Of a stretch of 64,000 nt of DNA, positions 8,692 to 37,441 are shown piece by piece. The first letter of the stretch is position 1. Every line of letters starts with the position of its first letter. Source of the DNA: Escherichia coli. Lineage in GTDB: Bacteria; Pseudomonadota; Gammaproteobacteria; Enterobacterales; Enterobacteriaceae. A program made the translations under genes and the position numbers. The stretch is from assembly GCF_050920415.1 (NCBI RefSeq), contig NZ_CP169309.1; one strand, given 5' to 3'. The notes beneath the pieces are model-generated. The model was not told where the DNA came from. It made no database searches and saw only the letters and a list, made by a program, of their open reading frames with translations.

Positions 8692-9704
8692 TTATTGAAC
8701 GTTGTCGTGAACTGGCGTTGCGAGCGCCCGCCAGAGTGGTTTTTCCTGATGCGTTAGACCAACGCGTGCTGAAAGCCGCGCAATATCTGTATCAACAAAG
8801 TCTGGCGACGCCCGTTCTTATCGCCAATCCGTTTGAACTTCGCCAGTTTGCGCTCAGCCACGGCGTGGCGATGGACGGGCTACTGGTGATTGATCCTCGT
8901 AGCAACCTCGCAATGCGGGAAGAATTTGCTGACCGCTGGCAGGCCCGTGCGGGAGATAAAACGCCGTCGGATGCGCTGGAAAAACTTACCGATCCACTAA
9001 TGTTCGCCGCTGCGATGGTTAGCGCTGGTAAAGCGGATGTCTGTATTGCAGGCAACCTCTCTTCAACGGCAAATGTACTACGTGCCGGATTACGCGTTAT
9101 CGGCTTGCAGCCTGGCTGTAAAACGCTCTCCTCCATTTTCCTGATGCTGCCACAGTACAGCGGTCCAGCATTGGGCTTTGCCGATTGCAGCGTAGTGCCA
9201 CAGCCGACGGCGGCGCAGTTGGCGGATATCGCGCTTGCCAGCGCCGAAACCTGGCGAGCCATCACCGGAGAAGAGCCGCGCGTGGCGATGTTGTCGTTTT
9301 CCAGTAACGGCAGCGCCCGTCACCCCTGCGTTGCCAACGTGCAGCAAGCGACAGAAATCGTCCGTGAGCGCGCACCAAAGCTGGTCGTCGATGGCGAGTT
9401 GCAGTTTGACGCCGCCTTTGTGCCGGAAGTGGCGGCGCAAAAAGCGCCAGCCAGCCCGCTACAAGGCAAAGCCAATGTGATGGTTTTTCCGTCGCTGGAG
9501 GCGGGAAATATTGGCTACAAAATCGCACAACGACTTGGCGGATATCGTGCCGTCGGGCCATTGATACAAGGACTTGCCGCGCCGATGCACGATCTCTCTC
9601 GTGGTTGTAGCGTGCAGGAAATTATCGAGCTGGCGCTGGTGGCAGCCGTGCCGCGTCAGACAAAAGTGAACCGCGAAAGCAGTTTACAAACACTGGTTGA
9701 ATGA
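8688..9704 (+). CDS. eutD: Phosphotransacetylase EutD
   Basis: 338 aa PTA-family protein; 4-nt overlap with eutT. Confidence 0.9.
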
Positions 9705-9742
9705 ACGGTCCCGTTCTGGACCCCTATAAAGAGGAAAACACA

Positions 9743-10036
9743 ATGGAAGCATTAGGAATGATCGAAACCCGGGGCCTGGTTGCACTGATTGAGGCTTCTG
9801 ATGCGATGGTGAAAGCTGCGCGCGTCAAACTGGTTGGTGTTAAGCAGATTGGCGGCGGCCTGTGTACTGCCATGGTTCGCGGTGATGTTGCAGCCTGTAA
9901 AGCCGCGACCGATGCCGGTGCCGCAGCGGCACAGCGTATCGGTGAACTGGTATCCGTACATGTTATTCCGCGTCCGCACGGCGATCTGGAAGAGGTCTTC
10001 CCGATCGGCCTGAAAGGCGATAGCAGCAACCTGTAA
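9743..10036 (+). CDS. eutM: Microcompartment major shell protein EutM (BMC domain)
   Basis: ORF 9701..10036 trimmed to ATG 9743, which sits behind the RBS aaagaggaaa; [28 protein letters not shown]..., 97 aa. Confidence 0.9.
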
Positions 10037-10142
10037 TCACCCTGTGTGACGTCGATTCGGGCGTCACGCTCTCTCCTTTTTCAGTTTACCTTCCGCGGAG
10101 GGTAGGGGGAGCTTTTACCTGAAATACGCCACGGAGGCGGGT

Positions 10143-10430
10143 ATGAAACTGGCAGTCGTCACTGGACAAATTGTTTGTACCGTACGCCATCACGGACTGG
10201 CGCATGACAAATTGCTGATGGTGGAAATGATTGATCCACAAGGTAATCCTGACGGGCAATGCGCCGTCGCCATCGACAATATTGGCGCGGGAACCGGGGA
10301 GTGGGTGTTGCTGGTGAGTGGCAGTTCCGCCCGCCAGGCGCATAAAAGCGAAACGTCACCGGTCGATCTGTGCGTGATTGGCATCGTCGATGAGGTGGTC
10401 TCTGGCGGTCAGGTAATTTTCCACAAATAA
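10143..10430 (+). CDS. eutN: Microcompartment vertex protein EutN
   Basis: 95 aa, MKLAVVTGQIVCTVRHHGL...; EutN/CcmL-family pattern. Confidence 0.9.
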   Translation: MKLAVVTGQIVCTVRHHGLAHDKLLMVEMIDPQGNPDGQCAVAIDNIGAGTGEWVLLVSGSSARQAHKSETSPVDLCVIGIVDEVVSGGQVIFHK

Positions 10431-10441
10431 GGCAGAACATC

Positions 10442-11845
10442 ATGAATCAACAGGATATTGAACAGGTGGTGAAAGCGGTACTGCTGAAAATGCAAAGCAG
10501 TGACACGTCGCCCGCCGCCGTTCATGAGATGGGCGTTTTTGCTTCCCTGGATGACGCTGTTGCGGCAGCCAAAATTGCCCAGCAAGGGTTAAAAAGCGTG
10601 GCAATGCGCCAGTTAGCCATTGCTGCCATTCGTGAAGCAGGCGAAAAACACGCCAGAGATTTAGCGGAACTTGCCGTCAGTGAAACGGGTATGAGCCGCG
10701 TAGAAGATAAATTTGCCAAAAACGTCGCTCAGGCACGCGGTACGCCAGGCGTTGAGTGCCTCTCTCCACAGGTGCTGACCGGTGACAACGGCCTGACTTT
10801 AATTGAAAACGCGCCCTGGGGCGTGGTGGCTTCGGTGACGCCTTCCACTAACCCGGCGGCAACCGTAATTAATAACGCCATCAGCCTGATTGCCGCGGGC
10901 AACAGCGTCATTTTTGCCCCGCATCCGGCGGCGAAAAAAGTCTCTCAACGGGCTATTACGTTGCTCAACCAGGCGATTGTTGCCGCAGGCGGGCCGGAAA
11001 ACTTACTGGTTACTGTGGCAAATCCAGATATCGAAACCGCGCAACGTTTGTTCAAGTTCCCGGGTATCGGCCTGCTGGTGGTGACCGGCGGCGAAGCGGT
11101 AGTGGAAGCGGCGCGCAAACACACCAATAAACGTCTGATTGCCGCAGGTGCTGGCAACCCGCCGGTGGTGGTGGATGAAACCGCCGACCTCGCCCGTGCC
11201 GCTCAGTCTATCGTCAAAGGCGCTTCTTTCGATAACAACATCATTTGTGCCGATGAAAAGGTACTGATTGTTGTTGATAGCGTAGCCGATGAACTGATGC
11301 GTCTGATGGAAGGCCAGCACGCGGTGAAACTGACCGCAGAACAGGCGCAGCGACTGCAACCGGTGTTGCTGAAAAATATCGACGAGCGCGGAAAAGGCAC
11401 CGTCAGCCGTGACTGGGTGGGTCGCGATGCGGCGAAAATCGCGGCGGCAATCGGCCTGAACGTGCCGCAAGAAACGCGCTTGCTGTTTGTAGAAACCCCC
11501 GCAGAACATCCGTTTGCCGTGACCGAACTGATGATGCCAGTGCTGCCGGTCGTGCGCGTCGCCAACGTGGCGGATGCCATTGCGCTGGCGGTGAAACTGG
11601 AAGGCGGTTGCCACCACACGGCGGCAATGCACTCGCGCAATATCGAGAACATGAACCAAATGGCGAACGCCATTGATACCAGTATTTTCGTTAAGAACGG
11701 ACCGTGCATTGCCGGGCTGGGGCTGGGCGGGGAAGGCTGGACCACGATGACCATCACTACGCCAACCGGTGAAGGGGTAACCAGCGCGCGTACGTTTGTC
11801 CGTCTGCGTCGCTGTGTATTAGTCGATGCGTTTCGCATTGTTTAA
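10442..11845 (+). CDS. eutE: Acetaldehyde dehydrogenase (acetylating) EutE
   Basis: 467 aa aldehyde dehydrogenase-family protein; operon position. Confidence 0.92.
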   Translation: MNQQDIEQVVKAVLLKMQSSDTSPAAVHEMGVFASLDDAVAAAKIAQQGLKSVAMRQLAIAAIREAGEKHARDLAELAVSETGMSRVEDKFAKNVAQARGTPGVECLSPQVLTGDNGLTLIENAPWGVVASVTPSTNPAATVINNAISLIAAGNSVIFAPHPAAKKVSQRAITLLNQAIVAAGGPENLLVTVANPDIETAQRLFKFPGIGLLVVTGGEAVVEAARKHTNKRLIAAGAGNPPVVVDETADLARAAQSIVKGASFDNNIICADEKVLIVVDSVADELMRLMEGQHAVKLTAEQAQRLQPVLLKNIDERGKGTVSRDWVGRDAAKIAAAIGLNVPQETRLLFVETPAEHPFAVTELMMPVLPVVRVANVADAIALAVKLEGGCHHTAAMHSRNIENMNQMANAIDTSIFVKNGPCIAGLGLGGEGWTTMTITTPTGEGVTSARTFVRLRRCVLVDAFRIV

Positions 11846-13869: not shown

Positions 13870-13870
13870 A

Positions 13871-14057
<187 letters not shown>

Positions 14058-14085
14058 AAATAACAACTAACAGGGAGTAAAGGCG

Positions 14086-21707: not shown

Positions 21708-22970
21708 CTAAGATTGCTGATAAGACGTCGCTGTTGTCCGGCACTCCGGGCAGATAAACGCGTAAATTATCCCTTCGCCATATTGTTCAATATCGGCATA
21801 ATCCAGTTGCGCAAGAAACATCATTGTGTGGGAACATTGCGGACAGAGAGGATATTCCGCGTCCTGAATCCAGGTTGGATGCCCGCCAAGTTGCGAGAAA
21901 GAGACAGGTAAAAATGGGTCTGCGGCAAATAACGGTGACCTAAGGTTTCCCTGTCTCATGCTGTTTACAGGGAGTCGACGCCATTCCGATACATCATCCG
22001 GCAGCCAGGCAGGCGGGATATTTTTTGCAGACAAATGAGCGTTACCCTTTGAGTCCATGTAGCCGAAAATGGTGCTGTAGGCGGTGCAACATTCGCAAGT
22101 CACGACGCGAAAACTGCCGTTATCGCTAAGACCCGTTGCCTTCAGGTCAACGTCGAAAAGATTTGTTAGGGGCAATGCGCACTTTGGACAGGTATCGCTG
22201 CGTTCATCAACAACACGCAAAGCTTCGCAAGACCCGGTGCTTTTCATCTCCAGATGAAAACATTGAGGAAAATAGAGATTACGCCTTTGATCTTCAGCGG
22301 TTAACTCCCAACCGGCCTCATGCGCATATTCTTCTGGCGCGATGTAAAGTGAACTGCGCCACAGCGGCGGGTTATTGCGCCAGTAGGCAAAACGTTCAAC
22401 AACAACGTCATCCCCAATCCATGCCAGACATTGCAGAATACAATTTCTGTTTTCTGCATCATCCTCAACCCGTTCTAACAGCGTATCGCGAACATCCGCT
22501 GGGGCGCGGTGGAAAGGCAGAGGAGAATAAGCGTCTAAATCATCATAAGAGATCCACTCTCGTAAATATGCATCCAGATTTGCCTGGGTAAACGCCGCCA
22601 GACAAAGACAAATCTCCTGAGCGTGTTCATATTCACCAGACGCAAAGCGTTCTGTGGCGTAATCAGCCATTTGCTGCGCTTGCTCGGCGGTCAACTGTTG
22701 ATACAGGGCATCGGTGGGAACGGGGCAGGGAGTCCAGTCGATTAACGCATCGAATTTCCGCGGTTGGTGAATTAATTTAAGCATGGCAACCGGATCGCTT
22801 AACCCAGCAAACGCATTCACGATCTTTTTGTTTTTCTTGATATATTCGTCGTGCTCACGCTGCTGTTGGGCCTGCTCGCAGGGCATGCAGTATCCGTTAG
22901 TACGCGCTGCGGTTTCCGGAAGAATGGTTGATGTACAAGCGGGGCTTTTACAGGGAATACGGTGAGTCAT
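21708..22970 (-). CDS. Hypothetical Cys-rich protein with DUF1963/YwqG-like C-terminal signature; accessory relative to K-12
   Basis: 420 aa; several CxxC pairs (CMPC, CPKC, CPQC, CPEC); C-terminal GGHPTWIQDAEYPLCPQCSHTMMFLAQLDY...GIIYAFICPEC resembles the DUF1963 family by recollection. Confidence 0.6.
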   Translation of the reverse strand: MTHRIPCKSPACTSTILPETAARTNGYCMPCEQAQQQREHDEYIKKNKKIVNAFAGLSDPVAMLKLIHQPRKFDALIDWTPCPVPTDALYQQLTAEQAQQMADYATERFASGEYEHAQEICLCLAAFTQANLDAYLREWISYDDLDAYSPLPFHRAPADVRDTLLERVEDDAENRNCILQCLAWIGDDVVVERFAYWRNNPPLWRSSLYIAPEEYAHEAGWELTAEDQRRNLYFPQCFHLEMKSTGSCEALRVVDERSDTCPKCALPLTNLFDVDLKATGLSDNGSFRVVTCECCTAYSTIFGYMDSKGNAHLSAKNIPPAWLPDDVSEWRRLPVNSMRQGNLRSPLFAADPFLPVSFSQLGGHPTWIQDAEYPLCPQCSHTMMFLAQLDYADIEQYGEGIIYAFICPECRTTATSYQQS

Positions 22971-37404: not shown

Positions 37405-37441
37405 TAGGCCTGATAAGACGCGTAAACGTCGCATCAGGCAA
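37405..37441. repeat. REP element between cysA and cysM
   Basis: gtaggcctgataagacgcgtaaacgtcgcatcaggca palindrome. Confidence 0.7.

Follow-up and report, generated by a model that had tools for sequence, protein, structure and literature searches.

How does a single 17-gene transcript yield shell proteins in very different amounts? For the ethanolamine utilization (eut) operon, which contributes to gut colonization by Escherichia coli and Salmonella, this is largely unexplored. Shell stoichiometry decides whether ethanolamine microcompartments close properly, and cells without EutN make elongated structures (PMC12487888). We analyzed a 64,000-nucleotide stretch of E. coli DNA (from contig NZ_CP169309.1; the window) that carries the operon, and asked what lies between eutM, the gene for the facet protein, and eutN, the gene for the vertex protein. 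An earlier reading of this DNA, made from its sequence alone (the sequence-only reading), had proposed that a structured spacer between these genes attenuates read-through, so that EutM is made in excess over EutN. We found that the spacer, which sits exactly at the facet/vertex gene boundary, is a previously unannotated RNA element of a familiar class (intercistronic stem-loops, stabilizers like the repetitive extragenic palindromic (REP) sequences, weak terminators). Its structure probably helps to separate the expression of eutM and eutN, as a case of familiar operon punctuation and not of a new mechanism.

We found that the spacer folds into two hairpins (Table 1). The gap runs from the eutM stop codon to the eutN start codon exactly as the sequence-only reading had placed it. 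The 6-bp inverted repeat that it had pointed out, gtgacg...cgtcac (10046-10051 and 10062-10067), is real and is the core of a longer hairpin with a 10-bp stem (hairpin 1), which starts 7 nt past the eutM stop and in which 6 of the 10 base pairs are G-C. The pattern GTGACGYC-N3-30-GRCGTCAC had one match in the window and none in 100 shuffles. The second near-palindrome that it had noticed, ccttccgcggaggg (10089-10102), is also real; it is the apical stem-loop of a two-part, 14-bp hairpin (hairpin 2). In the basal stem of hairpin 2, CUCUCCU (10071-10077) pairs with GGGGGAG (10105-10111). A 9-nt internal loop (10078-10086) follows on the 5' side, and in the apical stem UACCUUC (10087-10093) pairs with GAGGGUA (10098-10104) around the loop CGCG (10094-10097). 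The T-run that had been described as following the first hairpin exists, but it starts 7 nt past hairpin 1 and lies inside hairpin 2. Downstream of hairpin 2 is an A/U-rich linker whose segment UUUUACCUGAA is a candidate U-tail of hairpin 2, a candidate RNase E-type cleavage region, or both.

The minimum-free-energy (MFE) and centroid folds of the spacer agree, and both contain the two hairpins. RNA folding, which the sequence-only reading had named as a check, finds the hairpins, but the single-sequence fold (MFE -42.2 kcal/mol) is only marginally better than chance (z = -1.98; 9/200 shuffles fold as well). The strong support comes from comparison.

We found that relatives with a homologous spacer (class A, described below) preserve the pairing of both hairpins. 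In an alignment of 19 class-A sequences from five genera, which are related to one another and from which the consensus structure was itself derived, 97.7% of cells pair, compared to 41-64% when the partners are slid. Changes on both sides were found in 9 pairs, compared to 1-2 with slid partners, and none of 500 shuffles reached the observed pairing and covariation values. The stem of hairpin 1 was retained in 19/19 aligned relatives and was almost invariant there. The length of its loop ranges from 4 to 21 nt. Compensatory changes in this stem occur in distant relatives (Yokenella, Pluralibacter, and the loci L054 and L055), in a series from GUGACG/CGUCAC to GUGGCG/CGCCAC to GUGGUG/UACCAC (A-U to G-C, C-G to U-A), with a change from a G-C to an A-U pair in Yokenella. 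This argues that hairpin 1 is a structural element and not a sequence-specific site. It also weakens the idea that the stem is recognized by its sequence, for example by the nucleic-acid-binding tail of EutK; Salmonella keeps EutK and lacks hairpin 1. In hairpin 2, compensatory changes were found in 8 of the 12 pairs (ACCUUC/GAGGGU, GUUCUC/GAGAGC and GCCCUC/GAGGGC in different relatives). Both hairpins are thus maintained by compensatory evolution.

The spacer is also under purifying selection. Outside the variable loop of hairpin 1, the window's spacer is 80-87% identical to that of Citrobacter or Klebsiella spallanzanii, compared to 49-58% at four-fold degenerate sites of eutD, eutM, eutN and eutE (Fisher p from 1e-6 to 1e-13) and 54-74% at those of the flanking eutM and eutN alone. 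Within Escherichia, the spacer is 97-99% identical, compared to 80-86% at four-fold sites, and both positions at which the window differs from K-12 (10084 and 10094) fall in loops. The segment TACCTGAA is invariant or nearly so across class-A genera. A BLAST search with the spacer alone found it in one place per genome in 5407/5426 complete E. coli genomes, at ≥90% identity in all of them, and unannotated. Covariation and conservation together support what had first been seen in one sequence, a stable and evolutionarily conserved RNA structure between eutM and eutN.

In E. coli K-12 grown on ethanolamine and B12, the relative abundances are EutQ 100, EutM 96, EutL 39, EutB 37, EutE 27, EutC 24, EutS 11, EutD 10, EutK 8, EutG 7, EutP 7 and EutN 1 (PMC11334477). 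The excess of EutM over EutN that the sequence-only reading had assumed is thus real (96 vs 1). However, EutE, EutB, EutC and EutL are all encoded downstream of the spacer, and their levels limit any transcriptional drop within it to approximately 3-fold. Attenuation in the spacer could therefore give about 3-fold at most and not about 100-fold. Among the tightly packed upstream genes, EutQ is at 100 and EutD and EutP are at 10 and 7, which indicates that translation efficiency dominates stoichiometry in the eut operon.

The translation-initiation region of eutN is predicted to be the least favorable of those of the quantified eut genes. Its opening energy (positions -20 to +15) is 11.8 kcal/mol, the highest of the 12 genes (5.4 for eutM and 4.3 for eutE). 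Over 42 loci of both spacer classes, which are not phylogenetically independent, the mean opening energies are 11.2 for eutN, 6.3 for eutM and 5.8 for eutE, and eutN is highest in 41/42. The mini-hairpin over the eutN Shine-Dalgarno sequence has a base-pair probability of ~0.76, and pairing of the start codon with eutN codons 12-14 has a probability of ~0.5. When the energies of the Shine-Dalgarno duplex and of opening are summed into a crude initiation energy, this value correlates with abundance (Spearman -0.60, p = 0.04, n = 12) and places eutN last. The eutN ribosome-binding site is GC-rich and partly paired, its Shine-Dalgarno sequence half-buried in the mini-hairpin, and it is predicted to be the least accessible among the quantified eut genes.

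The other side of eutM has a smaller structure. A hairpin in the eutD-eutM spacer (Table 1) is followed by an A-rich, unstructured eutM ribosome-binding region. Its GGTCCC does not vary among 14 aligned genera or species of classes A and B (Escherichia, Citrobacter, Salmonella, Klebsiella, Yokenella, Pluralibacter and others) and is absent in Buttiauxella. We found no compensatory changes in the aligned relatives, and the single-sequence z-score was not significant. This hairpin may be a 5' boundary structure of the eutM cistron.

We compared the junction in approximately 55 loci, taken from a scan of a genome collection with EutN and from contigs found through EutN homologues. In every examined proteobacterial locus where eutN directly follows eutM, the two genes have a 50-211 nt spacer between them, and almost all of these loci have a strong hairpin near the eutM stop. 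Class A, homologous to the window's spacer, is found in seven named genera (Escherichia, the Citrobacter freundii complex, Klebsiella spallanzanii, Phytobacter, Buttiauxella, Entomohabitans and Pluralibacter gergoviae) and in several metagenomic relatives; Yokenella and locus L059 have short forms with hairpin 1 only. Class B has REP-type palindromes and is found in Salmonella, other Klebsiella, C. koseri, C. amalonaticus, C. sedlakii, Pseudocitrobacter and others. A third type, also with a strong hairpin, was seen in Enterobacteriaceae bacterium ESL0689 and a metagenomic relative (L052 and L060). The first hairpin begins 4-9 nt past the eutM stop in class A and the third type; in REP spacers the distance is usually no more than 13 nt. 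With a covariance model built on the class-A sequences, distant members were recovered at 19-29 bits, and no match was found in class-B loci or in a Salmonella pdu locus.

Three further observations concern individual relatives. The third-type hairpin (1431-1500 in L052 and L060) has 10-11 bp, GUGGGUCGGA...UCCGACCCAC, begins 7-8 nt past the stop, and is unrelated to class A and to the classical REP consensus; it may be a lineage-specific repeat. K. spallanzanii (L043) has a class-A spacer and an EutM 98% identical to that of E. coli, whereas its close relatives K. michiganensis, K. oxytoca and K. grimontii (L029-L031) have REP-type spacers, which suggests recombination or horizontal exchange within the eut operon. 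In spacers of the Pluralibacter gergoviae type (L053, 1359-1500; L057, 1358-1500), the CU tract pairs in the MFE fold with the eutN Shine-Dalgarno sequence GGGGGGAGC and not with the 3' arm of hairpin 2. These predicted folds hint at two mutually exclusive structures in such spacers; the E. coli ensemble does not populate the alternative one.

Based on these results we tentatively favor, at a little short of probable, the notion that the spacer is a cis-acting intercistronic RNA element, placed between the genes of the most and the least abundant shell protein, that serves as a decay barrier or leaky stop and as a translational insulator, with poor initiation at eutN doing most of the work. 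The hairpins would act like the REP palindromes at the Salmonella and Klebsiella junction, as a stable 3' structure where transcripts end. Such ends would arise either when the A/U-rich linker is cleaved and exonucleases then trim the RNA 3'-to-5', or when transcription terminates weakly at the U-run that follows hairpin 2. The structure would protect the upstream RNA that contains eutM, raising eutM message modestly over that of the downstream genes. The structured gap would uncouple eutN from the heavy ribosome traffic on eutM, and its having to initiate alone from a poorly accessible site would set most of the ~100-fold EutM:EutN ratio. As is characteristic of a protective 3' stem-loop, a stable and conserved structure lies at the 3' boundary of the more abundant cistron (EutM 96, EutN 1, EutE 27).

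There are known systems of this kind. In the Rhodobacter puf operon, an intercistronic hairpin was shown experimentally to act between pufBA and pufLMX. As proposed here, the hairpin closes off a stable upstream segment of the RNA and thereby helps to set the structural stoichiometry of a large protein assembly; the puf sequence and organism are unrelated, and the mechanism that was demonstrated for puf is inferred for eut. Like the REP sequences and bacterial interspersed mosaic elements (BIMEs) of malE-malF and hisJ-hisQ, the eutM-eutN element is a stable stem-loop just past the stop of the higher-expressed upstream cistron in a polycistronic transcript. REP-type sequences occupy the orthologous junction in Salmonella, Klebsiella and several Citrobacter, and the window's own eut operon has a BIME of four REPs at eutG-eutH. 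Unlike them, the spacer lacks the REP consensus, occurs once per genome and not in hundreds of copies, and consists of two different hairpins and a conserved linker that are vertically inherited across genera. REP and other 3' stem-loops protect upstream cistrons, as in malEFG and in a genome-wide survey, and in the model of Dar and Sorek (2018) an endonuclease cleaves the RNA and exonucleases then trim it until a 3' structure stops them (PMC5927463). The structures described there are likewise conserved hairpins, at the boundary where an abundant upstream segment gives way to a less abundant one; they lie mostly inside the downstream coding region, whereas the eut element has its own non-coding spacer.

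The value of such an element is a concrete, testable case of shell stoichiometry control that is useful for engineering, and not a new principle. If our reading is correct, shell composition can be tuned in a simple way, through the hairpins and through the structured ribosome-binding site of eutN. When eutMN is cloned as a unit for synthetic compartments, the spacer is carried along unnoticed.

Several points weigh against this reading. The difference in initiation energy, approximately 3 kcal/mol, accounts for the direction of the ratio but predicts a several-fold effect and not a 100-fold one, and the intensity-based absolute quantification (iBAQ) value for the 95-aa EutN is noisy. Unpaired segments are conserved too, notably UUUUACCUGAA, and a simple exonuclease barrier needs no such conservation. 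The REPs of other genera could have inserted here opportunistically and need not be equivalent in function. Hairpins ≤15 nt from a stop codon reportedly lower expression of the upstream gene (said to be a result of Liang et al. in 2015), which would oppose high EutM. In the searchable literature we found no transcript 3'-end, half-life or reporter data for the eutM-eutN junction, and no Term-seq or in vitro termination data for the induced eut operon. Finally, PduN abundance is low in Salmonella, so the pdu operon keeps its vertex protein low although its junctions are only 3 nt long and it has no spacer; such stoichiometry can therefore be reached without one.

In that pdu locus (L050, 15992-24357) the junctions are all tight: pduA and pduB overlap, pduJ-pduK and pduM-pduN are 3 nt apart, and we found no structured spacer near the shell genes. 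The tight pduA, pduJ and pduN junctions led us to reject a general rule of structured spacers after major shell genes. With no comparable spacers in Salmonella pdu, the structured spacer is specific to eut and is not a general microcompartment feature. The L050 record is labelled a plasmid and looks like the chromosomal cob-pdu region.

Our results might also indicate that the spacer is a leaky intrinsic terminator, the idea behind the sequence-only reading: hairpin 1, hairpin 2 or both, with their U-runs, would stop some polymerases, so that all downstream genes would be transcribed less. We consider this unlikely. By a d'Aubenton-Carafa-type score (hairpin energy plus U-tail), five known terminators gave +22 to +52, hairpin 1 approximately -50 (tail GCUCUCUCCUUUUU) and hairpin 2 approximately -20 (tail (C)UUUUACC). 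The low score of hairpin 1 is due to a tail that begins with GCUCUCUCC, which separates the U-run from the stem; the U-run belongs to hairpin 2. Both hairpins are GC-rich stem-loops of the size found in terminators (~5-15 bp), with U-runs nearby, and neither combines a U-tract 0-2 nt from the stem with a score in the known range. A simple scan for terminator-like sequences lists hairpin 1 only because it allows 5 T in 8 with an offset. Since the T-run is shared between the 5' arm of hairpin 2 and its internal loop, the layout is not that of a canonical terminator.

Relatives point in both directions on this question. Directly after hairpin 2, a U-run (UUUU, UUUUUUU or UUU) is present in Escherichia, Citrobacter, Phytobacter, Pluralibacter, L054 and L055; in the four named genera the sequence at this place is UUUUACC. 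A U-run lies 1-9 nt past hairpin 1 in nearly all class-A relatives, and a pyrimidine-rich tract with a U-run follows hairpin 1 in all of them except Yokenella. Scores were slightly positive in only two, Buttiauxella noackiae (hairpin 1, +4.5) and L054 (hairpin 2 with a U7 tail, +7.9), and REP-class junctions lack any U-tract. Leaky terminators and attenuators follow major-subunit genes such as papA and fimA or lie within ribosomal-protein operons, and eut resembles papA and fimA in that the gene of its most abundant structural subunit is followed by a hairpin with a U-run close by, and then by minor-subunit genes. It differs in its short or displaced U-tract, in scores far below those of known terminators and in its abundant downstream enzymes. 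The decrease from EutM 96 to EutE 27 or EutB 37 fits a partial polarity of ~3-fold, but attenuation does not explain EutN at 1 when the product of the next gene, EutE, is at 27. In addition, hairpin 1 starts only 7 nt past a heavily used stop codon, and a terminating ribosome should hinder the folding of a hairpin so close to it. The spacer does not look like an efficient attenuator; weak, leaky termination is possible. Of the earlier proposal, the RNA structure and the EutM excess hold, and read-through attenuation as stated is not supported by the sub-terminator scores or by the amounts of EutE and EutB made downstream.

The spacer might instead be purely a translational insulator that has no effect on RNA amounts and prevents ribosomes that have finished eutM from moving on, from reinitiating and from opening up the initiation region of eutN, a possibility that we regard as quite unlikely. 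It would account for the short distance between the eutM stop and the first hairpin, seen always in class A and the third type and usually in REP spacers, for the use of different hairpin types in different genera (as expected if any stable block suffices), and for an eutN initiation region that is consistently the least accessible of eutM, eutN and eutE. Conservation of the linker and internal-loop sequence exceeds the needs of a passive block, however; a length of 50-211 nt would by itself uncouple translation without hairpins; and pdu keeps pduN low with a 3-nt junction. An active regulatory RNA seems to us very unlikely. In it, the unpaired and conserved CU tract, UUUUACCUGAA and loop GGA over the eutN Shine-Dalgarno sequence would be read by CsrA, a small RNA (sRNA) or an Eut protein, or would pair alternately with the 3' arm of hairpin 2 and with the eutN ribosome-binding site, so that the vertex-to-facet ratio of the shell would be adjustable to conditions; or a ~75-nt RNA from the eutM 3' untranslated region (3' UTR) would be released to act elsewhere.

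Highly improbable, in our estimation, is that the spacer is a binding platform for a trans-acting factor such as CsrA, or the precursor of a 3'-UTR-derived sRNA whose CU-rich tract targets ribosome-binding sites. Conservation of its unpaired segments, well above that of synonymous sites, speaks for this. The CsrA consensus resembles CACGGAGG displayed in a hairpin loop, and CACGGAGG does lie in the loop of the short hairpin over the eutN Shine-Dalgarno sequence. In Pluralibacter-type spacers, that sequence is a possible partner of the CU tract in place of hairpin 2. There is a precedent in Salmonella, where CsrA binds the eutS leader and regulates eut (PMC10433801). On the other hand, the features of a CsrA-repressed initiation region (a GGA in the loop of the Shine-Dalgarno hairpin, here at 10133-10135, and a second one 10-60 nt away, here at 10097-10099) are present but nonspecific, as any strong Shine-Dalgarno sequence has GGA and several eut ribosome-binding sites have GGAGG. 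The second GGA is missing in two Buttiauxella species, distant relatives vary the stem sequence of hairpin 1 freely, E. coli does not populate the alternative pairing, and our literature search found no paper tying CsrA, Hfq or an sRNA to the eutM-eutN junction. Least probable of all is a relic without current function, left for instance by an old insertion, whose folding simply reflects a GC-rich, palindromic sequence. The marginal single-sequence fold (z = -1.98), the replacement of the spacer by unrelated REP elements in other genera and the lack of a spacer in pdu are all consistent with a relic. Conservation far above that of synonymous sites, compensatory changes in both hairpins, retention in 5407/5426 E. 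coli genomes and the confinement of both window/K-12 differences to loops argue against it.

The element does not belong to a known family. An Rfam 15 cmscan of 9500-10700 (E up to 10) gave only a chance snoRNA match on the opposite strand. ANTAR targets, known as antiterminator targets from Firmicute eut loci, have fixed hexaloops; with no Rfam match and a hairpin 1 loop of 4-21 nt, we rejected an ANTAR target, a riboswitch or another curated RNA family. The REP consensus (GCCGGATG/AAG...CTTATCCGGCCTAC, ≤2 mismatches) had no match in the window's spacer or in any class-A spacer. It matched 10 class-B spacers, and the REP hallmark CTTATCCGGC/GCCGGATAAG was seen on reading the spacers of L006, L017, L022 and L026. 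The hairpin-1 motif occurs once per class-A locus, and the class-A covariance model found no second convincing copy. The spacer is therefore not a dispersed repeat or a REP, being single-copy and without the REP consensus. A weak match to the model at 22288-22372 (19 bits, E ~0.015 by a rough calibration) is most likely due to chance.

Other candidates within the spacer were rejected. A closing stem ACCC/GGGU around the whole spacer is present in the E. coli MFE fold but is not kept in Citrobacter or Buttiauxella. Citrobacter R56 does not share the 8-nt direct repeat UUUUACCU, which we had considered as a sign of a switch and whose alternative hairpin is weak. Pairing of the 5' arm of hairpin 1 with GTCGTCAC (eutN codons 5-7) was dropped since the motif also occurs in REP-class species and is absent in Buttiauxella and Yokenella. 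The sole candidate for a small open reading frame (ORF) is a 19-codon GTG frame without a ribosome-binding site, and spacer lengths in relatives differ by non-multiples of three. No internal sigma-70 promoter for eutN was predicted in the spacer.

The eut operon is complete and uninterrupted on the + strand of the window, from eutS to eutR, as judged from the ORF list and translations (Table 1). In the RefSeq annotation of a 100%-identical E. coli record, the genes on either side of the spacer are eutM and eutN, and RefSeq records annotate both flanks and no feature between them. As the sequence-only reading had stated, most eut junctions are tight (12/16 overlap or are ≤20 nt), but eutM-eutN is not the sole long gap. 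The four longer junctions are eutD-eutM (38 nt), eutM-eutN (106 nt), eutG-eutH (216 nt) and eutK-eutR (45 nt), so that eutM-eutN is second to eutG-eutH.

Table 1. Features of the spacer and genes of the eut operon in the window
Feature	Start	End	Strand	Remarks
eutM-eutN spacer	10037	10142	+	106 nt; single-copy, conserved, unannotated
Hairpin 1	10044	10069	+	10-bp stem GUGUGACGUC/GGCGUCACGC, loop GAUUCG; MFE and centroid folds, terminator-like scan
Pyrimidine-rich tract UCUCUCCUUUUUCAGUU	10070	10086	+	contains T-run 10077-10081; 5' basal arm and internal loop of hairpin 2
Hairpin 2	10071	10111	+	two-part, 14 bp; MFE and centroid folds
A/U-rich linker CUUUUACCUGAAAUAC	10112	10127	+	unpaired in MFE fold; UUUUACCUGAA (10113-10123) conserved
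eutN translation-initiation region	10127	10142	+	GGAGG 10133-10137 in mini-hairpin CGCC-ACGGA-GGCG (10127-10139)
eutD-eutM spacer hairpin	9707	9722	+	GGUCC-CGUUCU-GGACC; in 38-nt spacer 9705-9742, 2 nt past eutD stop
eutS	6388		+	
eutP	6736		+	
eutQ	7190		+	
eutT	7888		+	
eutD	8688		+	
eutM	9743	10036	+	97 aa, major hexameric shell protein; stop TAA 10034-10036; ORF list
eutN	10143	10430	+	95 aa, pentameric vertex protein; ATG at 10143; ORF list; homologues with Pfam PF03319
eutE	10442		+	
eutJ	11856		+	
eutG	12682		+	
eutH	14086		+	
eutA	15309	16712	+	
eutB	16724		+	
eutC	18106		+	
eutL	19003		+	
eutK	19675		+	
eutR	20221		+	

The eutG-eutH junction (13870-14085) is a BIME of four REP palindromes in alternating orientations. 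The eut operon thus has two structured punctuation points, eutM|eutN and eutG|eutH. The REP consensus has 19 matches elsewhere in the window, and more REP clusters lie outside the eut operon, at 462-531 and 37408-37439 (match GCCGGATRMGRCG).

The end of eutA adjoins the start of eutB (16712 and 16724), with no prophage between them in the window. In E. coli K-12 a prophage interrupts eutA-eutB, and the adjacency indicates that a prophage of the K-12 type is missing from this operon. Over the eutM-eutN segment, one E. coli RefSeq chromosome matches the window at 100% identity and most others at ~97.5%, and the allele (9700-10450) is rare, with ≥99% identity in only 2/5409 E. coli records. Four-fold sites from eutD to eutE are only 86% identical to those of K-12. 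The window may represent a divergent lineage or a recombinant segment here.

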